Shown: one piece after another, positions 50,820-64,000 of the stretch | Position numbering within the stretch: position 1 is the stretch's first letter | Layout of the letters: each line of letters opens with the position of its first letter | From: an uncultured Eubacteriales bacterium | GTDB taxonomy: Bacteria; Bacillota; Clostridia; Christensenellales; Aristaeellaceae | Direction: 5' to 3' | Assembly (NCBI GenBank): GCA_900315675.1 | Contig: OMZY01000013.1 | Coordinates: forward strand, 700-64,699 | DNA length: 64,000 bases | The notes under the pieces: model-generated | The model's input: the letters and a program-made list of their open reading frames with translations, nothing else | The model's database searches: none | What the model was told of the DNA's origin: nothing | Program-made: the position numbers and the translations under genes

Positions 50820-51610
50820 CACGGCGTCGTATCCGCAACCTCATTCGGCGCACTTTCCGCAATCTCAGTCGGCGCAGCAGGCATCGCTGACGCATCAACC
50901 CGCTGCTTGCTTCGATTGACTCGTTCGGGGCACTTTTGTCTTCGGCAAATGACCCACTGGGTCACCGCTTCCCTCGCTCCCCATTGGGCAGCTCGCTTGC
51001 TTCGGTTGAGACGACGATCGATGAGCCTTCAGCCACTCCTCTGTATGTGAACTGTTACCCAAATCAGAGATTTGGACAGTTCATCACGGCTGTCATCGAT
51101 TGTCGTATCCGCAACCTCAATCATCGCACTTTCCGCAATCTCAATGGTCGCAACTCCACACTGTGGAGCTTGCTCCCTTTCGATTGACCTCACCTCTGAC
51201 GAAATTTCTGCCACTGGCAGTCGTCAGAGGTTCGCCCCTTGGAGCGGTCGCATTGCTCGTTTCGGTACGGATTCGCGCGCGCACCGCGGGCGGAATTCCC
51301 GTCTCGCGCACCGCGCACGACAGGACTCCGCCTCATTTCGGCTTCGCCGACAGCCCACTGGGCTGACATTCAACTCGCTCTCCGCACCCTCAATCGGCGC
51401 GACTGTCTCCCAGACAGATCGCTTGTTTCGGGTGAGACGACGACCGATGAGATTTACTCCCGCATCCTCAAAGGTCGTTCATAGCCCTTGGAACGGGCTA
51501 TGCTCTTCCTTTCGGATGACTCGTTCGTCTCATTTCGGCTTCGCCGACAGCCCACTGGGCTGACATTCGGCTCGCTCCCCACTGGCTGTCATCGGTTGTC
51601 GTCCCACGGA
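50820..51610. other. ORF-poor region of nested hairpins and internal repeats
   Basis: 40-bp exact direct repeat (51332-51371, 51529-51568); imperfect 45-bp repeat (50826, 51102); several CCA-C-TGG palindromes; long-range inverted pairs. Confidence 0.7.
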
Positions 51611-51849
51611 TCTTCATACCCCATGGCCCGTTCGCTATCCCCTACACCAGCCGTAGTTGGATCCACAATGACGCCGATGAGGCCCAGGAAGGTCAGCACC
51701 TGGTTCAGCAGCTGCACAACCAGGTTCTGGGTCACCGCCGGGAACACGTCAAACAGCGCCAGCAGGCTGTAAATAAAGCCGATTACTAGGCTCAGGAAGC
51801 TTCCCAGCCAGACCTTGTTCTTAAAGCGCACTTTCCAGTTAATTCTCAT
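51589..51849 (-). CDS. Phage holin (phi LC3/LL-H-like)
   Basis: INWKVRFKNKVW...GVIVDPTTAGVGDSERAM; two TMs; RBS AGGAGG. Confidence 0.9.
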   Translation of the reverse strand: MRINWKVRFKNKVWLGSFLSLVIGFIYSLLALFDVFPAVTQNLVVQLLNQVLTFLGLIGVIVDPTTAGVGDSERAMGYEDPWDDNR

Positions 51850-51861
51850 AGTCATTCCTCC

Positions 51862-52080
51862 TTAAAGATGTTTGATTTCCTTCAGTTCGTCCTGCAGGTT
51901 TTTGACCGTTTCCTCCAGGCGGAACATCCGCTCCACCACGCTGTTGTGCTTGTCCACCTTCTCCTCCAGCTTTTCCAGCCGGTAAGCCACCAGCGCCGTC
52001 TGCTTCCGGTTGCTCACATAGACGCCCAGGAAGGCAAAACCGGCAGTGATCAGGGCAGCAATAATCGTCTCAACACTCAT
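51862..52080 (-). CDS. Small lysis-cassette membrane protein (XhlA/hemolysin-like)
   Basis: N-terminal TM then YRLEKLEEKVDKHNSVVER coiled coil; lies between endolysin and holin. Confidence 0.7.
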   Translation of the reverse strand: MSVETIIAALITAGFAFLGVYVSNRKQTALVAYRLEKLEEKVDKHNSVVERMFRLEETVKNLQDELKEIKHL

Positions 52081-52838
52081 CAGTTCATCAGCTCCTTCCA
52101 GGTCTTGGGCCCGCAGATCCCGTCAACGGTTAAACCATGGTCCTTCTGGAAGGCCTTCACTGCTTTTTCCGTCATCCTTCCAAAGTCCCCATCCACGCCG
52201 CAGGATCCCAGATCATAGCCCAGGCGTTCCAGAATACCCTGCATTTCCGCTACTGTTTCACCTTTACTTCCCCGCCGGATCGTCAGCCGGTTTTCAGCAT
52301 TTAATTCTGCATTCTGCATTCGCAATTCTGCATTGTCACCGGCGTAATCTACGCCGGTGACTTCCCCCCAGTGCGTCCATTTTCCCGCCGTGACCTTCGT
52401 GGTGGTCACGCCTTTGAGCGTGCTCATGGCTTCGATCACAATCCCGCCGCCCGCATACAGTCCCACATGGCTGTAGCTGCTGCCGTTCCAGACGAAGACC
52501 GCGGTGCCGGGCTTCAGGGTGCCCCGATCGGTGCGCTTGCCCTTGCTCAGTTCTCCCTTGTTCACGCAGAATTTCCGGTACATGGTATCGGATCCGTGGT
52601 AGATGCTTCCGCCCAGCTACTTAAACGCCCACGAAAAAAGGCCGCTGCAGTCAGCGACCCTGTGCCCGATCCATTTGCTCCCATACTGCCGTCCCTGTGC
52701 CCGGTTGGCATCCGTTGTTTTCTCCAGTTCCTTCTGCTTTTCGGCCGTCCACTTTTCTCCGGCCGTTCCCCAGATATAGCCCCAGTGTTCATCCAGCGCC
52801 TGCTGAAACTTCGCGATCAGCGCTTCTGCTTTGATCAT
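52080..52838 (-). pseudogene. NlpC/P60 endolysin with C-terminal peptidoglycan-binding domain, split by one in-frame TAG
   Basis: GYIWG...VADCSGL (Cys), TAG at 52617-52619, then in frame SHVGLY (His) and PG_binding_1 motif RRGSKGETV..MQGIL..LGYD..VDGDFG..T..AV..FQ. Confidence 0.8.
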
Positions 52839-52965
52839 TTCATTCACCTCTCCCTGATGCAATAGACTTGTCTATTTTTCTCTTTTGAGCCTGTTTCCCG
52901 CTTCCCCGCTGCGTTATGCTTTATGCAGCAAAAAGCGGCTGACGCCGCAAACGGAGGAAGAGATC

Positions 52966-53262
52966 ATGAAGAAACAGCTGTTTGTCGTAAGTTTCTGCTA
53001 CCGGGGTATGCTGGGCGGCGATATCATCGCGGATGAGAACGCCATCACCTACAAGACCGGAAAACTGACCATCCCCGCCGAATTCCGGAACCTGGAAATG
53101 AAGTATGCGGACATCGCTTATGTTTATCGTGACAAGGCCGGTTTTTTCCCGGCGGTCACCGTGCATATGAAAGATGGAAAGAACTATAAGTTTGTCATCT
53201 TCTTCGCCCGGAAGCGGTTCTTTGAACTGATGAAAAGCCGGGGCGTGAATGTCAATTCATAA
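52966..53262 (+). CDS. Hypothetical protein (non-phage, inserted)
   Basis: RBS GGAGG; 98 aa, beta-rich; opposite strand to phage genes. Confidence 0.7.
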   Translation: MKKQLFVVSFCYRGMLGGDIIADENAITYKTGKLTIPAEFRNLEMKYADIAYVYRDKAGFFPAVTVHMKDGKNYKFVIFFARKRFFELMKSRGVNVNS

Positions 53263-53312
53263 TTCACAATTCATAATGATATAATCACCAGACTCCCGGG
53301 AAAACGGGAAGA

Positions 53313-53373
53313 TGACAGAGGAGACGGGGTTAAGGTCAAACTTCGCATGACATTAACCCCGTCCCTCGTGTCA
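53313..53373. repeat. REP-like long hairpin (GACAGAGG...CCGTCCCTC.TGTC family)
   Basis: Right arm nearly identical to 2073-2093; related to 60056-60121. Confidence 0.75.
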
Positions 53374-53427
53374 ACTTCCCGCCATGCGCGATGAGCGCAT
53401 TAAGTATTAATTCTTCATTCTTCATTC

Positions 53428-53853
53428 TTAATTCTTAATTGTTTTTGTCCCCGCCGGGATCGGAATCACCTTCCCTGCCACTTCTCCATTTATCCCCGTA
53501 ATTGAAACCGTTCCGTCCCCGTTGTCTGTCTGCATGACGCCCGGAAAGGCCGTATGCAGCACCGCGGGGACGGTTTTGTTTGTCCCGTCCCAGGACCACA
53601 GGGCCAGCTTTGCCAGCAGGTACTGCCGGAAGGCTTCATCCTGTGCATCTGCGCCGACATCCCCGCGGTCCAGCCCCACGGACCGGGCCAGACTGTCCAG
53701 CTGAATCCCCTCCGCCGCGGCAAAGGAAAAGGCCGGCTGCAATGCTTCAATCACAGAAACCAGATCCTCCGCCTGCCGAAACACCGCCCCGGCCAGCGCC
53801 ATCAGGCGGGGTTTGTCCCGGGAGGCGCCCGGGAAAAGGGAAAGCCAGTCCAT
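53428..53853 (-). CDS. Baseplate protein, DUF2612-like
   Basis: AFSFAAAEGIQLDSLARSVGLDR...DEAFRQYLLAKL...WDGT; follows baseplate J. Confidence 0.7.
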   Translation of the reverse strand: MDWLSLFPGASRDKPRLMALAGAVFRQAEDLVSVIEALQPAFSFAAAEGIQLDSLARSVGLDRGDVGADAQDEAFRQYLLAKLALWSWDGTNKTVPAVLHTAFPGVMQTDNGDGTVSITGINGEVAGKVIPIPAGTKTIKN

Positions 53854-53865
53854 CCGTTCCCTCCT

Positions 53866-54783
53866 TTACTCAAAATGAATGGTAATGCCCGTACCCGGCA
53901 TCGGGGTGATCTTCTCTTTCCACCCGCAGGGAACCAGGTCCCGGATCACACCGGAAGCCCCCGCCGCGTTCACCTGCACATCCGTGACGATAAAGGTCCT
54001 CGCCATGGCCGGATCCGCCGCGTAGGCGACGCCGAACAGCTGCGGCACATTCAGCGGCACCGCCAGTCCCAGGTTCCCGATGTATTCCGCGACCGCGGCC
54101 GTCACCGCGTCCCGGATCCGGTCCCGGTTTCCGCTTTCCATCACCCGGATATACAGGTGAATCATCACCAGCTTGTCCGCATACCGGGTGAAGGGAATCA
54201 GATGCTCCCGTCCCTCCGCGTCCGTCGCGACGCCGGAGGTACTTCCCCAGGCGCCGATCCCCGGCGCTTTTTTGTCATAGATCGCCTGGGCCACCGCGTT
54301 CGACCCGCCGCCCCGGACCACCACGGCAATGCTGTGGCCGGGAATCCCGAGGCTGTCCGGCGCGTCCGTTTCATTCACATACACCAGGGCGTCCATGGCT
54401 CCGCCCGCAGACCGAACCGCCGCCAGGATCGCGTCTTTCGATCCGGATCCCCGGCTTGCCAGCGCGTGCCGGATCCTGTTCCGGACAGAAACGTCCGTTT
54501 CCCCCGCCTCCCGGGCCAACCCGTACTGGGGCAGCAGCAGGTCCAGCGCCTGCCCGGACGCGTAAGCCGGGTTCCGGCTGTTATAAGCCTTCAGCACCAG
54601 GGCGGAAACGTCGTCCAGCGCCCTGGCAAAAACGGAAAGCAGCTGGTAATCCGGCGCGGCGGCGGACAGCTCCGCCCCGGCGCCGAAGATCCCCCGGTAG
54701 GCTTCCGTCAGCGCCTCCAGCCGTTCCTCATACGTCGGCATATGGATGCCGGTACCGTCGATATACGGCGCGAAATATGCCAT
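53866..54783 (-). CDS. Baseplate J/gp47-like protein
   Basis: YFAPYIDGTGIHMPTYEE, NPAYASGQALDLL, GETDVSVRNR, PGHSIAVVVRGG..VAQAIYDKKAPGIG. Confidence 0.85.
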   Translation of the reverse strand: MAYFAPYIDGTGIHMPTYEERLEALTEAYRGIFGAGAELSAAAPDYQLLSVFARALDDVSALVLKAYNSRNPAYASGQALDLLLPQYGLAREAGETDVSVRNRIRHALASRGSGSKDAILAAVRSAGGAMDALVYVNETDAPDSLGIPGHSIAVVVRGGGSNAVAQAIYDKKAPGIGAWGSTSGVATDAEGREHLIPFTRYADKLVMIHLYIRVMESGNRDRIRDAVTAAVAEYIGNLGLAVPLNVPQLFGVAYAADPAMARTFIVTDVQVNAAGASGVIRDLVPCGWKEKITPMPGTGITIHFE

Positions 54784-54831
54784 CTCAATTCTCCGTTCTC
54801 TTTTGTCAGAAAAAAGTTTATAGTTAAAACA

Positions 54832-54859
54832 GAACCTGTTTTCCGGTTTCCCCGTCTAA
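54832..54859 (+). promoter_or_regulatory. ECF-type promoter
   Basis: GAACC-N16-CGTCTAA, same as 21153-21180. Confidence 0.7.
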
Positions 54860-54903
54860 CGGATGGAAAGAATCCCCGACAGTATGCTCCAGGAGGAACG
54901 ACC

Positions 54904-55389
54904 TTGACCAACGAAGCCTTTACCGAAGCCGTCATCCGGATGACGCCCACCCTGTACCGGGTTGCCCGGGGCCAGCTGATCATCGAAGCGGATCAGCAGG
55001 ACGCCGTGCAGGAAGCAATCCGCCGCAGCTGGGAAAAGCGCGGCAGCCTGAAGAACGAGCGCTATCTTCAGACCTGGGTCATTCGCATTCTCCTGAACGT
55101 TTGTCATGACATCCAGCGGCACAGCAAGCGGGAGGTCCCGGTGGAAGAACTCCCGGACCGGCCGATGGCGGCAGCGGATTCCATCGACCTGCGGGACGCC
55201 CTGTTCCGGCTGACGGAAAAAGAACGCGTTTCCGTGATCCTGCATTATATCGAAGGATATGATGTGAAGCATGTCGCTGAAATCCTGAAGATTCCTGTCG
55301 GCTCCGTCAAGACAAGACTGATGCGTGCCCGCGCCCATCTGCGGGAGATCCTGAACGAGGAGGCACTGGAAGACAATGAAACGAAATGA
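54904..55389 (+). CDS. ECF RNA polymerase sigma-70 factor
   Basis: TTG start behind AGGAGG; TLYRV...DAVQEA...TWVIRILLNVCHD; YIEGYDVKHVAEILKIPVGSVKTRL. Confidence 0.9.
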   Translation: MTNEAFTEAVIRMTPTLYRVARGQLIIEADQQDAVQEAIRRSWEKRGSLKNERYLQTWVIRILLNVCHDIQRHSKREVPVEELPDRPMAAADSIDLRDALFRLTEKERVSVILHYIEGYDVKHVAEILKIPVGSVKTRLMRARAHLREILNEEALEDNETK

Positions 55390-57223
55390 AGATTTCAGAA
55401 ATGCCCTGGGGCAACCGGATGAATACTTCCGGCAGTCCGTCATTGATACACTGGACCAGCTGAATATGCAGGCGGAAAAGGAAAAGCGCCCGCAGAGAAG
55501 GTTTCCCGCCCGGCTCGTGTGCACTTTCGCCGCCCTGGCGCTGGCAATCACCGGCCTGTTCCTGTCCGGAGTGCACATTCCCGGCATTCCGACCGAAAGC
55601 TCTGTGGACGCAATCCGGCCGACGCCCACCGTTGCCACGCAGCTGACCGCCGACCAGCCGTCAGCGGCCGCCGCAGACCAGGCCGTATCCCGGATTCCTT
55701 TTGTGGAAACAGAGCTGGCTACCCTGACCATCCGCAACCCAAAGATCATCGGCTCCCATATTAAACTGCAGGTTGAAGTGATGCCCAAAGCCGAGAAGAC
55801 TCTGGCCCTGAACTGGAGTATTCATCCTTATACCGACCGTGTGACAAAAATCGGAAAAACCCCGGATTACGCGGGGCAGTCCATCATGCAATGGGCCAAC
55901 GATCATGGCTATACGCTTCTCCGCGTCGTCTTTGGCAATGCGTTTGAACCTGAGATTCCCGGAGTTTTACCCGACATTGATCCTCCAAAGACAGGAACTA
56001 TCCAAGCGCCCGCTTTTGATTCCATTTTCATTGATCAGTCAACCTATGAAGACAGCGGCGCTACGGTTATCACAGTCTCCGGTGATACGCTTCCGGACAC
56101 CATGGATTACATGCTTGGTTTTGTCCTGCAGACCTGGGACAATACAAAAACAGATTATCGCGATTATGAGAACGCCTTCCATTCGGACGGCCAGATCTTC
56201 GGGAATATTCCTTTCAGGACTGAAGCAGAGATCATCGAGACCGTCGCCCTGTACACCTCCCATCCCCATCCGTTCAAAAGCGATTCAGATCTTGAGTACA
56301 CTGCCGCATTCTATAAAACCACCTACGGTGAATATATGGAGGTTCGCACAAATGACCTTTCCCTCACCGACACATTTAAATCGTACAACCTGTATCTGAT
56401 GAGCCAGCTTTCCAGCCACCAGTTCCTCGTTCTTTATGATTTCTGGGCTACGAGGGTTTATCCCGATTCAGCGAACATCGATTCGCCTCTGGAGAGCGAA
56501 TGCTATCAGACGGAAGACGGCTGGCTCGTCGTCAGATGTCCCTGTGTGATATCCGAACTTCCGGATATGCTCGATCTGGATGTTGGAACAAGTCACTGCA
56601 ACCTCATAAAGGTTGAATCCGGCTGGAACAACTGGGGCGAAGAAATTGACCGGAGCACAGTAATCAGCACGGGCCCGGAAAACAACACATTGGAAACGGA
56701 ACTGGCCGACCTGAAGCTTCTGCAGGCTGAAACCGATGACCAGGGTCTCCTCTTCTCCTTTGCGGTTTCTCCCCGGCAGGATCACATCCTGGTAATCGGT
56801 ACAGATATCAATCCGGAAATAAATTCACCGACAAAAATCGGCCTGACTCCTGACCGCGCCGGCCAGACAATCGCCGAATGGGCTTTGAAACACGGCTATG
56901 ACCAGGTTATGGCCATCGATCTCTTCTCCCCGTCTGTCGAAGAATGCCCCACCCGGGACGCAAAATGCCGTACCGCGATCAGGGCCGCCGGGCAGGACGG
57001 TTCCGCCATCCTGGATGTACGCGGCAGCATTCTGGCCGATAAAGCGCTGTATGATCTGTGCTGCACCATTTCAGTCAGTAACTTGGCCGGCCATTATACA
57101 TACACCGATGACGGTGCAGGCGGTTCAGGCACGACTTTCACCGCAACATATACCCAGGATGCGCATACTTTCCTGAAGGTTTCCGTTCCCGGCGGAGAGG
57201 AAACGCCTGTCACCCGTAACTGA
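55376..57223 (+). CDS. Single-TM putative anti-sigma factor (615 aa) with a duplicated extracellular domain
   Basis: N-terminus MKRNEDFRNALG resembles MKKAEDFRKAFG of 16869-20648; TM; two copies of ETELA.L...TKIG.TPD.AGQ.I..WA..HGY. Confidence 0.7.
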   Translation: MKRNEDFRNALGQPDEYFRQSVIDTLDQLNMQAEKEKRPQRRFPARLVCTFAALALAITGLFLSGVHIPGIPTESSVDAIRPTPTVATQLTADQPSAAAADQAVSRIPFVETELATLTIRNPKIIGSHIKLQVEVMPKAEKTLALNWSIHPYTDRVTKIGKTPDYAGQSIMQWANDHGYTLLRVVFGNAFEPEIPGVLPDIDPPKTGTIQAPAFDSIFIDQSTYEDSGATVITVSGDTLPDTMDYMLGFVLQTWDNTKTDYRDYENAFHSDGQIFGNIPFRTEAEIIETVALYTSHPHPFKSDSDLEYTAAFYKTTYGEYMEVRTNDLSLTDTFKSYNLYLMSQLSSHQFLVLYDFWATRVYPDSANIDSPLESECYQTEDGWLVVRCPCVISELPDMLDLDVGTSHCNLIKVESGWNNWGEEIDRSTVISTGPENNTLETELADLKLLQAETDDQGLLFSFAVSPRQDHILVIGTDINPEINSPTKIGLTPDRAGQTIAEWALKHGYDQVMAIDLFSPSVEECPTRDAKCRTAIRAAGQDGSAILDVRGSILADKALYDLCCTISVSNLAGHYTYTDDGAGGSGTTFTATYTQDAHTFLKVSVPGGEETPVTRN

Positions 57224-57575
57224 TCCGCGCCGTTCCCGCCCCGGTGTCAACGGTGCACTCATAGCGGAACTGCCCGCCCTCAAAAGAACACTTTACCTCC
57301 CGGACGTCCACGACGCCGGGAGTTTTTCTGATATAGTCCGAAAGATAATTGGCCAGGATCTGCCGGTCCGTTTCCGTCAGTCGGGATTCCCTCAGCAGCT
57401 CCAGGATGCCGTTTCCCCACTCGGGATTCTCCCACCAGTCGCCGGTCAGCAGGTTCAGCCGGTCCCGGATCAGCTGCGTTTCCGCCCGGATGCCCGTCAG
57501 CAGGTCAGCAGCCGAAAGTACCGGCAGGATATCGCCGGAAGTGTCCGCAGGACGATAAGTTAATTCATAATTCAT
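57210..57575 (-). CDS. Baseplate wedge/gp25-like protein (DUF2634-like)
   Basis: YRPADTSGDIL...RLNLLTGDWWENPEWG...IRKTPGVVDV; position between spike and baseplate J. Confidence 0.75.
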   Translation of the reverse strand: MNYELTYRPADTSGDILPVLSAADLLTGIRAETQLIRDRLNLLTGDWWENPEWGNGILELLRESRLTETDRQILANYLSDYIRKTPGVVDVREVKCSFEGGQFRYECTVDTGAGTARISYG

Positions 57576-57585
57576 AATTCACAAT

Positions 57586-58008
57586 TCATAATGAATAGTT
57601 TGCTGCCGCTTCCGGCGTGCTTGTAAAGCGCGGTTTGAAGCCTATGAACGCGAAGGCGTCTGACAGCGAATGCTGCCTGCCGGAGCGGGGGATCTCCGCT
57701 TCCCCGGTTTCGAGCCAGGCGTCAATATCGCAGTCGGCAAAAATCAGCAGGCAGGCGTCCCCCGGATTCACCTCAAAGGGAACGGGCATAAACACGGGCA
57801 CGTCCCGTAAAAGCGGAAGCGCGCAGGCGTCTTTTCCCGGGCCGGACCCCGTCCGCCGTTTCAGTGCCGGGCGGATCGCGGCGGTTTGGGTTTCCGGATC
57901 GAATGCCTCCACCGTCCCCGGCAGCGCGCAGTGAAGTGCGGAGAGGATCTCCCTTTTCAGCGCCCCGATTCCGGAAGGAAACCCCTCTGTTTCAGTCGAA
58001 TTATTCAT
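57586..58008 (-). CDS. Gp138-like baseplate spike N-terminal domain, apparently C-terminally truncated
   Basis: HCALPGTVEAFDPETQTAAIRP...DVPV...GDACLLIFADCDIDAW...HSLSDAFAFIG, then stop about 15 aa later inside a repeat tract. Confidence 0.8.
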   Translation of the reverse strand: MNNSTETEGFPSGIGALKREILSALHCALPGTVEAFDPETQTAAIRPALKRRTGSGPGKDACALPLLRDVPVFMPVPFEVNPGDACLLIFADCDIDAWLETGEAEIPRSGRQHSLSDAFAFIGFKPRFTSTPEAAANYSL

Positions 58009-58051
58009 TCTGTCACCTCGGTAAATCAATTTTGCAAGGGAGACTTGATCT

Positions 58052-58603
58052 TTGAAACTGCTGATTGCTTCGGATATCCACGGCTCCGCCCTGTACTGCG
58101 GCGAGCTGCTGAAAGCTTATGACCGGGAGAAGGCGGACCGGCTTCTCCTGCTGGGAGACGTTCTGTATCACGGTCCACGCAACGATCTGCCCGACGGCTA
58201 TGCCCCCAAGGAGGTCATTCCCATGCTGAACGCGCGGAAGAATGACCTCCTGTGCATCCGGGGAAACTGCGACACGGAAGTGGACCAGATGGTGCTGGAT
58301 TTCCCCCTGATGGCGGACTACGCCCTGCTGTGCGTTGACAATCTCCGGATCTACGCCACCCACGGCCATGTTTTCAACCCGGACCGCCTGCCGCCGCTGC
58401 AGCCGGGAGACATCCTGCTCTACGGTCACACCCACATCCCCGCCTGGGACAAAAAGGACGGCGTCCTGTGCCTGAATCCCGGCTCCGTCTCCATCCCGAA
58501 GGCCGGGTCAGAAAGGGGCTACATGTTACTGGAAGATGGAGTGTTCAGTTGGAAAACGCTGTGCGGAAGCATTGTTCACGAGGAACAATGTTCCGCACAA
58601 TGA
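58052..58603 (+). CDS. yfcE: Calcineurin-like phosphodiesterase YfcE
   Basis: IASDIHGS, LGDVLYHGPRNDLP, IRGNCDTEVDQMVL, THGH, GHTH, NPGSVSIPK. Confidence 0.92.
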   Translation: MKLLIASDIHGSALYCGELLKAYDREKADRLLLLGDVLYHGPRNDLPDGYAPKEVIPMLNARKNDLLCIRGNCDTEVDQMVLDFPLMADYALLCVDNLRIYATHGHVFNPDRLPPLQPGDILLYGHTHIPAWDKKDGVLCLNPGSVSIPKAGSERGYMLLEDGVFSWKTLCGSIVHEEQCSAQ

Positions 58604-58700
58604 ATTATTGAGCCGCAAACGGCTCAATATGAATTATTTGCCTGCGGCAAATATGAATTATCCCTCTGCGAGTGATATGAATTATTCACCTTCGGTGAAT
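58600..58700 (+). repeat. Mini-array: four ATGAATTAT repeats separated by short hairpin spacers
   Basis: Repeats at 58600, 58629, 58653, 58677; spacers 20, 15, 15 and 15 nt, mostly self-complementary. Confidence 0.85.
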
Positions 58701-58768
58701 GTTTTATAATCTTCTCCCGCCAGGATTTGCGGCCGCAGTATTAATTCTGAATTCTTAATTCTGAATTC

Positions 58769-59557
58769 TTAATTCTGCATTTGCCTCTGCCAATCCGCCT
58801 TCAGGCTGATCAGCAGCATGCTTTCCCATTTTCCGTTCAGCGTATCAATATCCATCCTGCGTTCTGTGACGAGTCCCTCCGCGGACCCGTCTTTCCATTT
58901 GACGGAGATTCTTTCCCCCACCGGCCAGCCGGTCACGGTGGTCCGCAGGATCATCTGCCCGTCCGTGAAGGAAGGAGCGTCGATCAGGTCCCGTTCCGTC
59001 AGATACAGGATCACCGGCAGGCCTTCCGCCGGGATCACCCGCAGGCCGGCCGGGCTGAGGCAGGCCCGGGCAGGTACAGCGGAGAGCGCCTCCTCCGCGC
59101 ATTCCGCCGCCCGGCCGTAAAAGGCCTGGCCCCGGGTGCGGACAGGATCCGGCCCCGGAAAGGCCAGGAGGGAGATCCCCATTCCGGAAGCGGCCAGGAT
59201 CCTCCGCAGGGTTTCCGAAACAGAAACGCCGGCTTCCACCGACAGGGAGACCGGCGCTTCCCACAGGGGAAGGCCCGGGGAAAAGACTACCTCCGTCAGG
59301 GTTCCCTCCGGCACAGTCCGCCGCAGCACCGCCGACACCCGTCCCCAGGCCAGCAGGGATCCGTCCCGCAGGACCGAAAGATTCCTTGCGGCGTACAGCA
59401 GCCCGGTTCCGGAATCCGGCAGGTTCAGAAGCCGCAGCGTATAGGGCAGCGGCAAAAGGCCCAGGGCTTCCCGGCCCGTCAGGCGCGCATAACAAAAACC
59501 GGTCACCTGTTCCCCGTCCGCCAGAACGGTCAGTGACCGGAAAAGATTCTTTTCCAT
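58769..59557 (-). CDS. Putative baseplate hub protein
   Basis: LRLLNLP...VSLSVEAGVSVSETLRRI...FYGRAAEC...LIDAP; syntenic slot between plug and spike; call rests mainly on position. Confidence 0.6.
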   Translation of the reverse strand: MEKNLFRSLTVLADGEQVTGFCYARLTGREALGLLPLPYTLRLLNLPDSGTGLLYAARNLSVLRDGSLLAWGRVSAVLRRTVPEGTLTEVVFSPGLPLWEAPVSLSVEAGVSVSETLRRILAASGMGISLLAFPGPDPVRTRGQAFYGRAAECAEEALSAVPARACLSPAGLRVIPAEGLPVILYLTERDLIDAPSFTDGQMILRTTVTGWPVGERISVKWKDGSAEGLVTERRMDIDTLNGKWESMLLISLKADWQRQMQN

Positions 59558-59561
59558 GCTC

Positions 59562-59951
59562 TTATATATTCGTATACTCCGATACGTCCAGGCCGATCCG
59601 GCTCATGGCGTCCCTCAGTCCCGGAAGGATTTCCTCCCGGTCGAATTCCGCCCTGGCCAGGAATTCATCATCCTTGCTGTTCACATGATCGTAGAACTGC
59701 AGGATCAGGAGCCCCAGCGCGTCCTTTGCCATGCCGGAGGTTTCGATGATATCAAACAGCCGGTCCTCCGCGGCGTTGATTTCGCCCTTGTCCACCATCT
59801 CCAGCAGGAGATCGTTGCTGCCCCTGAATTCATCTCCCAGGGCAATGAACACTTCCTCTGAATTCAGTTTTTTGCCGAAAAGGATTACCGCCAGCATCTG
59901 GGTGATGCCGTAGATCATGCGCATGATGTAGTCCTTTTCGTAAATAAACAT
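59562..59951 (-). CDS. DUF6483-like hypothetical protein (non-phage, inserted)
   Basis: EKDYIMRMI...GEINAAEDRLF...FYDHVN...FL...EFDREEI. Confidence 0.7.
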   Translation of the reverse strand: MFIYEKDYIMRMIYGITQMLAVILFGKKLNSEEVFIALGDEFRGSNDLLLEMVDKGEINAAEDRLFDIIETSGMAKDALGLLILQFYDHVNSKDDEFLARAEFDREEILPGLRDAMSRIGLDVSEYTNI

Positions 59952-60055
59952 ATTCATCCGCTCCGTTTCAGATTGCAATGCAATTGTACAACAAGGAAAG
60001 GCAATTCTCAATTCATAATTCAGAATGATTATATCCCATGACGCAATGCGGGAAT

Positions 60056-60121
60056 GTGACAGAGGGACAGACCAACTGTCACGGCTAAAGGCTGTGTACA
60101 GTTGATCTGTCCCTCTGTCAC
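60056..60121. repeat. REP-like long hairpin
   Basis: GTGACAGAGGGACAGA...TCTGTCCCTCTGTCAC with inner CAACTGT/ACAGTTG stem. Confidence 0.8.
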
Positions 60122-60151
60122 GTTCCGTTTCTGCGCTTTGCTGTCTCCAGA

Positions 60152-60196
60152 TGTCATCCTGAGCAAGGGCGCTTGCGCCCGCGTCGAAGGATCTCC
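60152..60196 (-). repeat. REP-like GAGATCCTTCGAC...CTCAGGATGACA element overlapping the 3' end of the plug gene
   Basis: Reverse complement matches the 1906/1983/9262 family and supplies the gene's TGA. Confidence 0.75.
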
Positions 60197-60597
60197 CCCG
60201 CCGCAGCGGATAATTGTTCATTTGGCATCGTCAGAGACGATGCCATTCCCCACAGCAAACAGAAGTCTGTTATCGTGCCTTTCGCCGGATCCAGGCTGGA
60301 CGGTTCCCCGCCGTCCCTCAGGCAGATCAGCGATCCCACACCCTTGCCGTTCCGCAGATGGCGGAAGGGCAGGAGCAGGTCATTGATTTCTCCCCGGGAG
60401 CAGATCAGCGGGATCATGTTCACCAGCAGTTCTCCCGCCGCGTGATCCCACAGCGAGAAAAACCACTGGTCCGCCGCGGGCAGGTACCGGATCTCAATCT
60501 GCGCCTGGAAAGGTTCTCCGCTTATCTCCGCGCCGAAGGTCATCACCTGGCGGGTCGCGGAAGTCAGAGGAAGCTGATAGAACAATTCATAATTCAT
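60154..60597 (-). CDS. Phage baseplate plug-like protein (DUF6983-like)
   Basis: YQLPLT...QVMTF...IRYLPAADQWFFSLWD..GELLVNMIPLI...NDLL.PF. Confidence 0.7.
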   Translation of the reverse strand: MNYELFYQLPLTSATRQVMTFGAEISGEPFQAQIEIRYLPAADQWFFSLWDHAAGELLVNMIPLICSRGEINDLLLPFRHLRNGKGVGSLICLRDGGEPSSLDPAKGTITDFCLLWGMASSLTMPNEQLSAAAGEILRRGRKRPCSG

Positions 60598-60669
60598 AAT
60601 TCATAATGATTTCAGTCATAACGCAACGGATCATCCTTTGCGTGAAGGTTTCTTCCGGGCTGCCGCGGG

Positions 60670-61188
60670 TCACAGGCGGGACAGGATCAGCCTTGCCGCT
60701 TCCCCCGTCAGGCGGAGCACATTGCCGGTGAAGCCGGTATGTTCCCGGGTGGAGGAATTGTCATTGGTTTTCACGCTGCCGGCGTTTTTCCCGTCGGCCG
60801 GCACATACTGGGTGAAGGACAGGCTGCCGCTCCAGCCGCACTGGTTCTCCTCATCCTGCGTCGCCGTGATTTCCGTCAGCAACATATTGGAGTAGGTGCC
60901 CATGGAGGTGACCACGCCGCACAGCACCCGCCGGCTCTTCAGGGAGGCCATGGCCGCCAGCATATGGGCGGACCAGCCGGGCATATGCTCGGCGTCCGTT
61001 TCGATGACCGTGAGCGTCACCCGGTCCGGCTGGTTTCGCGCCCCGTTGATCAGTTCCGCCTCCTGCGAAGCGGTGCTGCCCAGGGTCAGCGACAGGCTGT
61101 GCTCAATGGAAGTCACGCCGGTAAAATGCCAGGCGCAGGAATCTCCGTTCACCCGGGCGGTCACATAGGCGGCGGACGCGGCGTTCAT
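60670..61188 (-). CDS. Dit-like distal tail/baseplate protein
   Basis: WHFTGVTSIEHS...NQPDRVTLTV...VVTSMGTYSNMLLTEITATQD...SLSFTQ; first phage gene after tape measure. Confidence 0.7.
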   Translation of the reverse strand: MNAASAAYVTARVNGDSCAWHFTGVTSIEHSLSLTLGSTASQEAELINGARNQPDRVTLTVIETDAEHMPGWSAHMLAAMASLKSRRVLCGVVTSMGTYSNMLLTEITATQDEENQCGWSGSLSFTQYVPADGKNAGSVKTNDNSSTREHTGFTGNVLRLTGEAARLILSRL

Positions 61189-61211
61189 GGTTTTCCCTCC
61201 TTCCGGGCATC

Positions 61212-61235
61212 AAAAAAGGCCTGCCGCAGCAGGCC
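61212..61235 (-). terminator. Intrinsic terminator between antiporter and Dit-like gene
   Basis: GGCCTGC-TGCG-GCAGGCC-TTTTTT on minus strand. Confidence 0.75.
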
Positions 61236-61262
61236 AAAGAACGAAAGGAAGACCCTCCGTTC

Positions 61263-62228
61263 TCACCTTGCAAACTGGAAAATGCAGAAGGCCGCGTAAA
61301 CGCACAGCAGGCAGATGCCCTGGGGCCGTGTCAGCTTTTCACGCTTCAGCGCGGGCAGGGTCATAAAGGCCATGACGAAGAACATCACGGGGATGTCCAC
61401 GGCCAGTGAAACCGGAACCCCGAACACGGTGTTTGTCGCCGGTACGGCAAACGGGGAAAGGGTGGTGCTCAGACCGGAAACCAGCACCAGGTTGAACAGG
61501 TTCGCGCCCACGATATTGCCCAGGCTTAAGGCGCTGTGTCCCTTGCGCAGGGCGGTGATGGCCGTGACCAGCTCCGGCAGGCTCGTGCCCAGGGCCACAA
61601 AGGTCAGGGCAATGACAGTTTCCGGTACGCCCATGGCATGAGCGATTTTCGTTCCGTTATCCACCAGCAGCCTCGCGCCGACGGCAATGGCCGCCGCGCC
61701 GGCAACCAGCATGAGCATGGTTTTCCAGAGGGGACTGTCCTTGTAGTCCTCCGCCCGGTCCTCTTTTCCGAAGCCGTGCCGCTTGCCGGACCAGACGGTA
61801 TAGCCGATGTAGAACGCGAACACCAGCAGCAGGGCGATGCCCGCCAGCCGGGTGAAGTAGCGGTCGATGTAGGCGTTCAGCGCGTAGAAAACCGCCGCGG
61901 CGAAGAAGAAAACCACCGGGGTGCGGAAGGTACGCCTGTCCACCGTACAGGGCCGGATCGCGAAGGTGATTGCCGAGATCAGCGCTGTGTTGCAGATGAT
62001 GCTGCCGATGGCGTTTCCGTAGGCAATTTCACTGTGGCCGCTGAGGGCGCCGGTTGCTGAAACCAGCACCTCCGGCAGGGTTGTTCCGATGGAAACCACC
62101 GTCGCGCCGATGATCAGCTCCGGTACATGGAAGCGGCGCGCCAGATCGCTGGATCCGTCCACAAACCAGTCTCCGCCTTTGATCAGCAGGACCAGTCCGA
62201 GAATAAACAATAAAACCGGTACAAGCAT
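61263..62228 (-). CDS. Calcium/sodium antiporter (CaCA family; non-phage, inserted)
   Basis: Two alpha repeats GTTLPEVLVS and GTSLPELVTA; GNAIGSIICN, GNIVGANLFN. Confidence 0.92.
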   Translation of the reverse strand: MLVPVLLFILGLVLLIKGGDWFVDGSSDLARRFHVPELIIGATVVSIGTTLPEVLVSATGALSGHSEIAYGNAIGSIICNTALISAITFAIRPCTVDRRTFRTPVVFFFAAAVFYALNAYIDRYFTRLAGIALLLVFAFYIGYTVWSGKRHGFGKEDRAEDYKDSPLWKTMLMLVAGAAAIAVGARLLVDNGTKIAHAMGVPETVIALTFVALGTSLPELVTAITALRKGHSALSLGNIVGANLFNLVLVSGLSTTLSPFAVPATNTVFGVPVSLAVDIPVMFFVMAFMTLPALKREKLTRPQGICLLCVYAAFCIFQFAR

Positions 62229-62336
62229 GTTTATCTCCTCCTGACCGGAAGATTATAACACACTCTCGCGGAATCTTGGGAACCGCTTTGAGAAAATAGC
62301 GGGGGCTATTCCGTCGAAAACCGCAAAATAGATTTT

Positions 62337-63230
62337 TCAGGAAAAAGCGGATTCCAGCGTCCGCAGCAGGTACCGCTCCGTCACGCTGTACAGGGACTGC
62401 CCGATCTCCTTCGCGTCCGCGCCCGAAGCATGCACCTGGATACTCACCGGCGCGGAAACCGACCGGGCGTCCCGGGTGACAATGCTCAGCACCTGTCCCG
62501 CTGCCGGACTCCCGGTGAGTACGCTCCCCATGAGTCCCTTCCCGATTTTTTCCTCTCCGTGAATTTTGAATTCCTGCGGAGTCAGTATTAATTCTGAATT
62601 CTGAATTCGTAATTCTGAATTGGTAACCCTCTCCCTCGCCGCCGGCGAAAGCTCCGAAAGCAGCCGGCGCAGCAGCGGCACCGCCCGTTTCTCCTTTTTG
62701 ACGGGAATAATGTATTCCGCGTCCCCGTCCTCCGCCACCTGTACCTCCGTCGGCCGGGAAAAGCGGCCGCCCGCGGACATTTTCACCGGGGGTCCGCCTC
62801 CGGGATCCGTTCCCCCGCCTTCCTGTTCCGCCTTCACGTGCAGCGTCACCGGCGCCGCAAAAAGGCTCCGGACGCTGTTCAGGGCCGTCCGGGCCGCGGA
62901 AGTGATTCCCGCCGCGCTGGCTTTCAGGGCGATCGGCTGTTTCACCAGGGCGGTGAAACGCTCATAATCCGTGAAAGCCTGTGACAGATCCAGGCCCAGG
63001 GACAGCCCGCCCAGTCCGTTCAGGCTTTCCGTCACAACGCCCCTGCCGGAGAAATCCGGCAGCAGGCCCAGGTCCTCCGCAAAAGCATGCAGGGAGGCGG
63101 AAGCGGCGCCGAAGGCCGCGGCCAGGGAATCCGCCAGCGCCGTGTTTTCCGCCAGGACCGACTGCAGGCGGGCAATCCCCGCCTCATCCAGTTCCACCGC
63201 AAAGGAAGCCAGAAACTCCTGATCCGCCAT
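62337..63230 (-). CDS. Very short (297 aa) tape-measure-like protein
   Basis: N-terminal EFLASFAVELD, Ala-rich helical middle, SAGGRFSRPT...AEDGDAEYIIPV tail motif; position upstream of Dit. Confidence 0.65.
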   Translation of the reverse strand: MADQEFLASFAVELDEAGIARLQSVLAENTALADSLAAAFGAASASLHAFAEDLGLLPDFSGRGVVTESLNGLGGLSLGLDLSQAFTDYERFTALVKQPIALKASAAGITSAARTALNSVRSLFAAPVTLHVKAEQEGGGTDPGGGPPVKMSAGGRFSRPTEVQVAEDGDAEYIIPVKKEKRAVPLLRRLLSELSPAARERVTNSELRIQNSELILTPQEFKIHGEEKIGKGLMGSVLTGSPAAGQVLSIVTRDARSVSAPVSIQVHASGADAKEIGQSLYSVTERYLLRTLESAFS

Positions 63231-63318
63231 CTTTCCTCTCTCCTTTCCGCCGTACTTGCCTCACCCCGCGCCGGGGTGATATCATATTTTCTGAAATACA
63301 GTAAGGATGGGTTCTGCC

Positions 63319-63954
63319 ATGAATATCTATGTTGATTTTGATGACTGCCTGTGTGAAACCGGAAGATCTTTTTCCGTTCTCGCCTCCGAGCTGTTCGGAA
63401 TAAACGTGCCCTACGAGGAGATGCGTTATTTCAACCTCCAGCACGCCTTCGGCCTGACGGAGGAACAGTACCGCCTGCTGCTTGTCAAAGGCCATGAGCC
63501 GGACCGGATCCTCGCCTTTGAGGAAACGCCCGGCGCCTCAGCGGTCATGAACGAATGGCTCCGCGCCGGCCACAATGTGTCGGTGATAACCGGCCGTCCC
63601 GGCAGCTGCTATGACGTATCCCGCGCCTGGCTGGACAACCACGGCCTGCAGGATATCCCGCTGTTCACCCTGGACAAATACGGCCGGGAGAACGGTATGC
63701 AGCACGGTGCCACCAGCCTCTCCCTGTACGACTATTACAAAATGAAATTCGATTACGCGGTGGAGGATTCTCCCCTGGCTTTCCGGTTTTTCGATCACCT
63801 GCCGGACCTGAAGGTCCTGGTCTTCGACCGCCCCTGGAACCGGCTTCCGTCGCTGCCCGGCAGCAATTACCTCCGGTGCTGTGACTGGAAAGCCGTCCGG
63901 GCCGCCGCCCTGAACCCCTACGGCGTGGAAGCCTCCGTCCTTGAACAGCCATAA
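63319..63954 (+). CDS. HAD-superfamily 5'(3')-nucleotidase-like protein
   Basis: IYVDFDDCLCET, VITGRP, SRAWLDNHG, YAVEDSP, VFDRPWN. Confidence 0.85.
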   Translation: MNIYVDFDDCLCETGRSFSVLASELFGINVPYEEMRYFNLQHAFGLTEEQYRLLLVKGHEPDRILAFEETPGASAVMNEWLRAGHNVSVITGRPGSCYDVSRAWLDNHGLQDIPLFTLDKYGRENGMQHGATSLSLYDYYKMKFDYAVEDSPLAFRFFDHLPDLKVLVFDRPWNRLPSLPGSNYLRCCDWKAVRAAALNPYGVEASVLEQP

Positions 63955-64000
63955 AGAACGATATAACGTTCCTCATCCCCGGGCAGCTTCGGCTGCCCGG

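Follow-up and report, generated by a model that had tools for sequence, protein, structure and literature searches.

The stretch of DNA analysed here (the window, 64,000 nucleotides (nt) long) corresponds to positions 700-64699 of contig C23 of G000, a metagenome-assembled genome (MAG) of 57 contigs and 3.6 Mb. Genomes, contigs and named loci are designated by G-, C- and L-numbers respectively; the organisms compared are rumen Christensenellales and every genome in the study is a MAG. The right-hand end of the window carries, on the minus strand, phage tail, baseplate and lysis genes in canonical order with six non-phage loci interleaved between them. They belong to a larger chromosomal element, hereafter the element, whose genes are listed in Table 1. 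This arrangement had been proposed from the letters alone (the sequence-only reading), and Pfam, PHROG, PDB profile and fold matches on the open reading frames (ORFs) of the window and of the neighbouring contigs recovered each gene at its proposed position. As had also been reported, three of the five internal inserts (hyp125, the sigma/anti-sigma pair and yfcE) lie on the opposite strand, and ten of the eleven phage ORFs are open. The endolysin, with its in-frame TAG, is the only broken phage gene in G000. Two names had to be tempered: the 'XhlA-like' gene exists, its label deriving from architecture only, and the 'HAD nucleotidase' of the right flank is a HAD-like gene with a weak, sub-threshold Pfam match.

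The baseplate genes follow the order tube initiator, plug, hub, spike, sheath initiator and wedge. This is the order of the minimal myophage Pam3, whose baseplate is composed of a tube initiator, plug, hub, spike, sheath initiator and gp22/gp23 wedge (PMC9942802). The element carries the baseplate components of this Pam3-type structural lineage. The hub gave no match in sequence-family scans or in a PDB sequence-profile search; the best folds for its AlphaFold model (pLDDT 63) are Neisseria 3d37, Mu gp44 (1wru), Pam3 7yfz_t and VgrGs (E 1e-8 to 1e-6). Full-length homologs of the tape measure, ~270-340 amino acids (aa) long, occupy the position between the tail assembly chaperone (TAC) and Dit in compact relatives, so that the short form belongs to this phage family by nature and is not the result of a truncation.

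The sequence-only reading had advised a search beyond the window for sheath, tube, capsid and terminase genes. All were found, together with a portal. To the right of the window, phage genes continue on C23 (locus L001) up to a neck gene at window-equivalent position 69944, past which the contig ends with a lipoprotein, a TRIC channel, RpiB and a 207-aa protein without family match. The capsid genes of G002, which are found another 6.6 kb upstream of neck1, served as probes and led to the G000 head genes at the end of C39; the join between C39 and C23 is inferred from G002 synteny. From TerS to holin the element spans at least 36 kb, a lower bound over the two contigs. Phage coding sequence accounts for ~16.5 kb, and over half is non-phage DNA: at least 19 non-phage genes, amounting to at least 19 kb of inserted chromosomal DNA, are located at about ten junctions. 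The genes for capsid, terminase and portal rank with the most highly conserved (84-93% identity between species).

Table 1. Genes of the element in G000 (window positions unless a contig is named) and the genomes in which selected inserts occupy the same junction
Feature	Origin	Position	Strand	Assignment and remarks	Junction	Genomes
Holin, last gene of the element	phage	51589-51855	-	Pfam Phage_holin_1, E 1e-22; relatives 70-93% identical
Small transmembrane and coiled-coil lysis-cassette protein, 72 aa	phage	51862-52080	-	phrog_1863, E 2e-11; DUF7365 sub-threshold
Endolysin	phage	52080-52862	-	NlpC/P60 and PG_binding_1 (Pfam); one in-frame TAG at 52617-52619
hyp125, 125-aa hypothetical protein	insert	52885-53262	+	no Pfam or PHROG match	DUF2612 / endolysin	G000, G001, G002
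DUF2612 baseplate/structural protein	phage	53428-53853	-	Pfam DUF2612, phrog_587
Baseplate wedge (Baseplate J / Pam3 gp22-like)	phage	53866-54783	-	phrog_6, E 7e-19; PDB 7yfz_A (Pam3 gp22), E 5e-15
Extracytoplasmic function (ECF) sigma factor	insert	54904-55389	+	Sigma70_r2/r4_2; probable TTG start at 54904 (start codon scan)	gp25 / wedge	G000, G001, G002
Putative anti-sigma, 615 aa	insert	55376-57223	+	position and paralogs, no family match; overlaps sigma stop	gp25 / wedge	G000, G001, G002
gp25-like sheath initiator	phage	57210-57575	-	phrog_120/975 baseplate wedge
Central spike, Gp138-type N-terminal OB domain	phage	57586-58029	-	Pfam PF18352, E 7e-22
YfcE-type metallophosphoesterase	insert	58052-58603	+	Metallophos_2, E 3e-22; single copy in genome	hub / spike	G000, G001, G002
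Baseplate hub (gp27 / Mu gp44 / Pam3 gp19-like), 262 aa	phage	58769-59557	-	fold match only
DUF6483 protein	insert	59562-59950	-	Pfam DUF6483, E 5e-24
Baseplate plug (Pam3 gp18-like)	phage	60154-60597	-	Pfam Pam3_gp18, E 4e-7
Dit-like tube initiator	phage	60670-61188	-	Pfam Dit_like, E 3e-8
Ca/Na antiporter (CaNa)	insert	61263-62228	-	Na_Ca_ex, E 7e-60; sole copy in genome	tape measure / Dit	G000, G001, G002, G023:C38
Short tape measure, 297 aa	phage	62337-63230	-	weak phrog_167 match; position and compact-phage homologs
HAD-like hydrolase	insert	63307-63954	+	weak sub-threshold Pfam LNS2 match only	tape measure / tail chaperone
Tail assembly chaperone pair, 3' end	phage	63973-64000	-	runs off the window
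Tail chaperone pair (TAC)	phage	C23, beyond window		Phage_TAC_15, phrog_1688, DUF6889
Tube	phage	C23, beyond window		KPP10_Orf10
Sheath	phage	C23, beyond window		DUF3383; phrog_205, E 4e-56
Tail terminator, head-tail protein, Neck1	phage	C23, beyond window		listed after sheath
SH3, hyp106, CPBP protease	insert	C23, beyond window		among tail genes
Putative TerS	phage	C39		position and N-terminal sequence; no family match
TerL	phage	C39		Terminase_6N
Portal	phage	C39		Phage_portal_3, E 1e-103
Two small genes and MurJ	insert	C39		after portal in listed order, before protease	MurJ beside protease	MurJ: G000, G002
Protease	phage	C39		DUF2213
phrog_563 protein	phage	C39		PHROG
Capsid	phage	C39		PF09950, E 2e-61; 93% identical to G002 capsid
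115-aa protein		C39		after capsid
BspA-type leucine-rich repeat protein	insert	C39			115-aa protein / phrog_302 protein
phrog_302 protein	phage	C39		PHROG
239-aa gene	insert	C39		last before contig end

Shared insertions and selection in related genomes

The distribution of the element was examined with concatenated protein queries and with maps of the named loci. Sheath homologs occur in 20 of the 24 other genomes of the genus. The sequence-only reading had called for a test of whether the locus is conserved in related genomes, and the same inserts are indeed present at the same junctions in G001, G002 and, in part, G023. Identities at shared junctions in G001 and G002 reach 66-68% for hyp125, 72-87% for the ECF sigma factor and 83-89% for yfcE, while the N-terminal half of the anti-sigma is 56-58% identical in G001. 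In G002 the element lies within a 3.4-Mb contig (2,090,743 to about 2,131,036). In other genomes the copies are compact or are interrupted in a different way (L030, L032, L041).

The antiporter gene CaNa, found between tape measure and Dit in G001, G002 and G023, is the marker of this interleaved clade. It has its own -10 box and terminator, with a terminator-like site at 61235-61218. The non-coding junctions on both of its sides can be aligned across G000, G001 and G023, including the -10 box and the terminator, suggesting that the insertion of CaNa was a single ancestral event. In a tree of concatenated proteins the CaNa-bearing elements form one clade (support 99/100), and the IMG/VR temperate phage falls elsewhere, beside the G018 copy. 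In the searched genomes outside the interleaved clade the CaNa ortholog is located away from phage genes.

Housekeeping proteins place G001 and G002 among the closest relatives of G000 (RpoB 96%, GyrB 98%, RecA 95-97% identity). G004 is more distant (90-92% for RpoB, GyrB and RecA). The G001 contig C6 (L029) was also binned in G004 (C57, L028): the two loci show 2 differences in 20,759 positions although the MAGs, each the representative of its species, come from different goat omasum samples and their GyrB/RecA identities to G000 are 98/95% and 92/90% respectively. Since the genomes differ while the contigs are nearly identical, the G004 contig was either mis-binned or recently transferred, and G001 and G004 are counted as one witness. 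The two contigs are too alike for a recent ratio of non-synonymous to synonymous substitution rates (dN/dS) to be obtained.

Selection was measured between the G000 and G001 loci, for which dS is partly saturated. Phage genes have dN/dS values of 0.06-0.41 (dS 0.5-1.1), well below 1, the level that the sequence-only reading had set as a test, with an exception of 0.57 for a chaperone reading frame that overlaps another; the lowest value belongs to the small transmembrane/coiled-coil gene (0.06). Embedded host genes gave 0.14-0.28 (dS 0.48-0.69). The similarity of these ranges suggests that phage and inserted genes diverged in place over a similar time and under similar constraint. Moreover, because the insertions are shared across species, the divergence measured by dS must postdate them. 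About 27 phage genes are intact in G000, G001 and G002 despite this divergence, and the phage frames are open in G023 as well. A neutral simulation of 24 phage genes (substitutions only; endolysin and one overlapping chaperone frame excluded) left 5.1, 1.7 and 0.35 open frames at 10, 20 and 40% substitution per site; all 24 are open in G000. Vertical inheritance under purifying selection was thus found, for one subclade of the genus only. Shared insertions, alignable junctions, low dN/dS and intact frames support the earlier suggestion of an old module kept under selection.

Composition did not follow the earlier expectation. The hand counts of GC on which it was founded (43/60 in the wedge gene and 25/60 in the anti-sigma gene) proved exact on recount, but the conclusion that phage genes are more host-like than the insert is reversed: inserts, at 55.7% GC (0.70 at third codon positions, GC3), are nearer to the genome (54%) than are the phage genes (60.8%, GC3 0.74). 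The median GC3 of long ORFs is 0.63. Structural genes thus exceed the genome in GC by a modest margin that stays within the host range.

Gene junctions and rearrangements

The intervening genes vary between species, as the sequence-only reading had foreseen. The DUF6483 insert, whose open frame extends to 60221 with homology beginning near residue 91, is present at the same junction in G001 and absent in G002. Orthologs of the HAD-like gene are located outside the element in G001 and G002, and in G001 HAD, SH3 and CPBP lie there together. Conversely, insert genes of the relatives' elements have counterparts elsewhere in G000 (65-82% identical). Chromosomal genes therefore enter and leave the element from one species to the next, whereas the phage genes remain. 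MurJ, CaNa, yfcE, TRIC and several others are single copies in the G000 genome, which speaks for the chromosomal nature of the element; the ECF sigma has many paralogs.

A gene of ~121 aa recurs inside the element, either between TAC and tape measure (L028 5962-6366, L035 4813-5178) or between tape measure and Dit (L032 7735-8100). Its G000 counterpart, 70-80% identical, is on another contig (C53:130714-131076). Wedge (Baseplate J-like) paralogs occur as a tandem pair in compact chromosomal copies (L041 3929-5737 and G023:C29 9707-11530). There is a single wedge gene in the interleaved clade, and in G000 the sigma/anti-sigma pair is directly upstream of it, where it could have taken the place of a lost copy.

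Larger displacements are also observed. In G000, neck1 adjoins the head-tail gene (C23 window-equivalent 69438-73421), whereas in G002 (C1 2108290-2111568) and G004 (C57 29078-41253) it lies beyond the lipoprotein-RpiB block. Either this one phage gene or the block has moved, and neither was damaged. Where the capsid gene appears to be in two parts, as in several other species of the genus, the N- and C-terminal pieces overlap by ~25 residues; they are ~21 kb apart in G009:C40 (45780-46136 and 23996-24667) and on separate contigs in G010, G011, G012 and G017. The pattern resembles that of a large insertion which entered the capsid gene and duplicated the target segment. In the hub and sheath genes, short copies of the 3' end are met again past large inserts (L030 11516-11608, L033 6496-6591, L032 3613-3777), a trace that an element inserting at the 3' end of a gene and bringing a replacement end would leave. 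The ~790 nt after the holin (50820-51610) are ORF-poor and repeat-rich (families D4, D6 and D12). They include two short pieces conserved in the G001/G004 flank and have no Rfam match.

Tandem 7-nt arrays (ATGAATT / CAGAATT and their complements) occur at 52303-52334, 53253-53280, 53408-53440, 57554-57595, 58735-58795, 60002-60029, 60583-60610 and 62589-62630. They overlap stop and start codons, several genes starting with MNYEL or MNCEL, and they are also found inside coding linkers such as NSELRIQNSEL (tape measure) and NAELRMQNAEL (endolysin). The genome contains 231 arrays of at least three units, with 8 in the 18.4-kb tail region versus 1 per 15.7 kb genome-wide. Some junctions retain an array in G001 and G023, and compact relatives have none. 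These (AATTCNN)n arrays are thus enriched in the tail region and were considered as insertion boundaries. They were rejected as the insertion mechanism, since they also occur at uninterrupted phage-phage junctions and within the coding linkers, are absent at the CaNa, HAD and anti-sigma borders and are rare or absent in relatives.

Nature of the element

Two IMG/VR contigs from rumen viromes represent the compact form. In L045 the genes from protease to endolysin stand in the identical order and take up 13.7 kb. In its sister contig L047 the genes after the holin, namely an integrase-like gene, a Cro/CI repressor, AAA_23 and AAA_24, are arranged as in a temperate phage. No homologs of these four genes were found near the G000 element, the only G000 matches to the early genes of L047 being an integrase (33%) on C50 and an AAA_24 protein (44%) on C27. 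More generally, no integrase, repressor or replication gene follows the holin in G000 or lies within 11 kb upstream of TerS, a region occupied by lipoprotein-like ORFs without family match, an ECF sigma, DegV and two CobW proteins. The sequence-only reading had asked for a check on the absence of integrase and replication genes; the result extends to the repressor. Rfam and tRNA scans of the window from 45 to 64 kb found nothing, arguing against an att-type tRNA there. The element thus lacks the contiguous integrase, repressor and replication genes of an intact temperate prophage. It has what defines a viriform, a structural gene set without replication, integration or repressor functions, the C39-C23 join being taken from synteny. 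With no less than 36 kb in G000 and some 41 kb in G002, the late region is about twice as long as the ~20 kb estimated for the compact form.

The loss of the early modules, vertical inheritance in a subclade and purifying selection together suggest that the element is a domesticated virus. On this sequence evidence it is probably a vertically inherited viriform, similar to gene transfer agents (GTAs) or to PBSX, derived from a Pam3-type temperate myophage and maintained by selection. The ancestral phage would have kept its complete late region (packaging, head, neck, tail, baseplate and lysis) and lost its integrase, repressor and replication modules. Its descendant would have been inherited vertically within one subclade of this rumen Christensenellales genus, its integrity held by purifying selection. 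Freed from fitting its own capsid, such a chromosomal element could gather gene-sized pieces of the chromosome at about ten intergenic junctions, these insertions being tolerated because the capsid-size limit no longer applies. Most pieces would have come with their own signals, and the insertions would have broken no structural gene. The phage genes may still be co-expressed from several transcription units and assemble head-plus-contractile-tail particles which, released via the holin/endolysin cassette, might carry host DNA or kill relatives.

It is conceivable, though we would not expect it, that the element is at present a working GTA or PBSX-like killer particle, with ~27 structural genes expressed from ~ten units dispersed between MurJ, the Ca/Na antiporter and other housekeeping genes. 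The embedded ECF sigma/anti-sigma pair might then be its host-side switch. If true, this would be a bacterial counterpart to the dispersal of domesticated virus genes in polydnaviruses.

Several observations weigh against a maintained viriform. As to expression, no convincing shared promoter motif was found upstream of 15 gene blocks, and the density of ATATCAC (0.21/kb in the element versus 0.12/kb genome-wide) is not significantly raised. No dedicated regulator was identified for the element. Opposite-strand inserts and the conserved terminator just before Dit should interrupt operon transcription, and two divergent junctions leave about 22-43 nt between start codons. As to function, the nonsense codon of the G000 endolysin falls between the catalytic Cys and His, at a K/Q position (AAG or CAG-type codons) in four relatives with an open frame of ~265 aa. 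In addition, no tail fibre or receptor-binding gene was recognised in the element: there is no candidate ORF for a gp24-type fibre between DUF2612 and endolysin, and nothing in G000 is homologous to the 529-aa ORF found in the compact phage. As to inheritance, the near-identical G001/G004 contig points either to mis-binning or to a transfer, in very recent times, of 45 kb or more. Beyond the holin, synteny between species is lost in the left flank. The next-closest relatives G011, G012 and G017 hold a related element without the CaNa insert and with a seemingly split capsid gene, so that retention is not uniform in the genus; the capsid gene appears as two distant or separate-contig pieces in G009-G012 and G017.

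Part of this evidence would equally suit an old prophage relic in slow decay, in which the frames are open because too little time has elapsed or because a few genes were exapted for a use other than particles. The amber codon, the lack of a recognised fibre gene, the ongoing insertions and rearrangements (such as the position of neck1 in G002 and G004) and the capsid or sheath pieces of G009-G013, G014 and G017, far apart or on separate contigs and in a few cases with internal stops, all point in this direction. Time does not appear to have been short, since the ~27 genes remained intact in three genomes through a divergence later than the shared insertions, when neutrality would predict about 2 of 24 open frames, and the high conservation of capsid, terminase and portal would not be expected of a relic. 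We therefore consider it unlikely.

A still-active, moron-rich temperate phage occupying the same site in several species, with its early region farther off or unassembled, is very improbable. Temperate relatives with an integrase exist, CaNa resembles a moron in having its own promoter and terminator, and the G001/G004 contigs are near-identical across different genomes. Against these stand the absence of early genes after the holin and within 11 kb upstream of TerS, a late region well above the compact estimate, flanks that differ between species, the presence inside the element of MurJ and the Ca/Na antiporter, neither of which has a second copy in the genome, and the location of CaNa away from phage genes in the genomes searched outside the interleaved clade. 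Finally, an assembly or binning artefact interleaving phage and host contigs is hardly credible although all genomes are MAGs and one contig is in two bins, since the interleaving is at the scale of single genes with intact junctions and recurs in assemblies made independently in different studies, the 3.4-Mb G002 contig among them.

A viriform of this type would matter in several respects. Very few bacterial lineages are known to have domesticated phage particles, and those described are almost all compact operons. The element indicates that selection can preserve all the genes of a particle even as their locus more than doubles through the acquisition of ordinary chromosomal genes. Such elements would be overlooked or wrongly scored by prophage and GTA finders that depend on gene density.

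Comparison with known systems

The sequence-only reading had left a choice between a GTA, a tailocin, a baseplate-derived apparatus and a relic. A GTA- or PBSX-like element is favoured here. Like R-type tailocins and extracellular contractile injection systems, the element keeps sheath, tube, baseplate and spike in the chromosome. It differs from them in possessing TerL, portal, protease and capsid genes, 84-93% conserved between species, and a tailocin or other tail-only or baseplate-only device was rejected for this reason. With the Pam3-type myophages and the IMG/VR temperate relatives (L045/L047) it shares gene order and matches to Pam3 gp18 and gp22. It is distinguished from these phages by its at least 19 kb of inserts, by the lack of a lysogeny/replication module and by the absence of a detected gp24-type fibre.

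PBSX of Bacillus subtilis, a defective prophage likewise found in Firmicutes and classed as a GTA-like killer particle, resembles the element in combining a head with a contractile tail and in its lysis cassette, where a small transmembrane/coiled-coil protein accompanies holin and endolysin. Both also include a sigma-type regulator gene inside the cluster, which in PBSX is Xpf. Unlike that of PBSX, the ECF sigma of the element is a paralog of many host pairs and is only a candidate for a regulatory role. PBSX is compact, and the structural lineages differ, the element having a DUF3383 sheath, a KPP10_Orf10 tube and a Pam3-type baseplate. By their family names, DUF3383, KPP10_Orf10, Pam3_gp18 and Phage_portal_3 are presumably not PBSX (Xkd) families, and no Xre-type gene is adjacent to the element. 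Descent from the Xkd lineage with its Xre/Xpf control module is therefore not indicated, and the resemblance is functional only.

GTAs such as RcGTA, BaGTA, VSH-1 and FpGTA are, like the element, chromosomal sets of head, tail and lysis genes without replication or lysogeny module, vertically inherited under purifying selection, with structural genes that are GC-richer than the genome average. The head-tail clusters of known GTAs are, to our knowledge, compact operons. The element, known here from its genes, consists for more than half of unrelated chromosomal genes distributed over about ten junctions. It also derives from a myovirus, with a contractile tail, while RcGTA and FpGTA have other morphologies. 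RcGTA is siphovirus-like. FpGTA is podovirus-like, and it is listed with PBSX as the only Gram-positive examples (PMC12946183). GTA-like packaging has been described in gut Christensenellaceae, with no gene cluster assigned to it (PMC12946183). The element could be the missing gene set behind this activity, and it provides a concrete, testable candidate should capsids mobilise DNA in the Christensenellales, which are abundant in gut and rumen.

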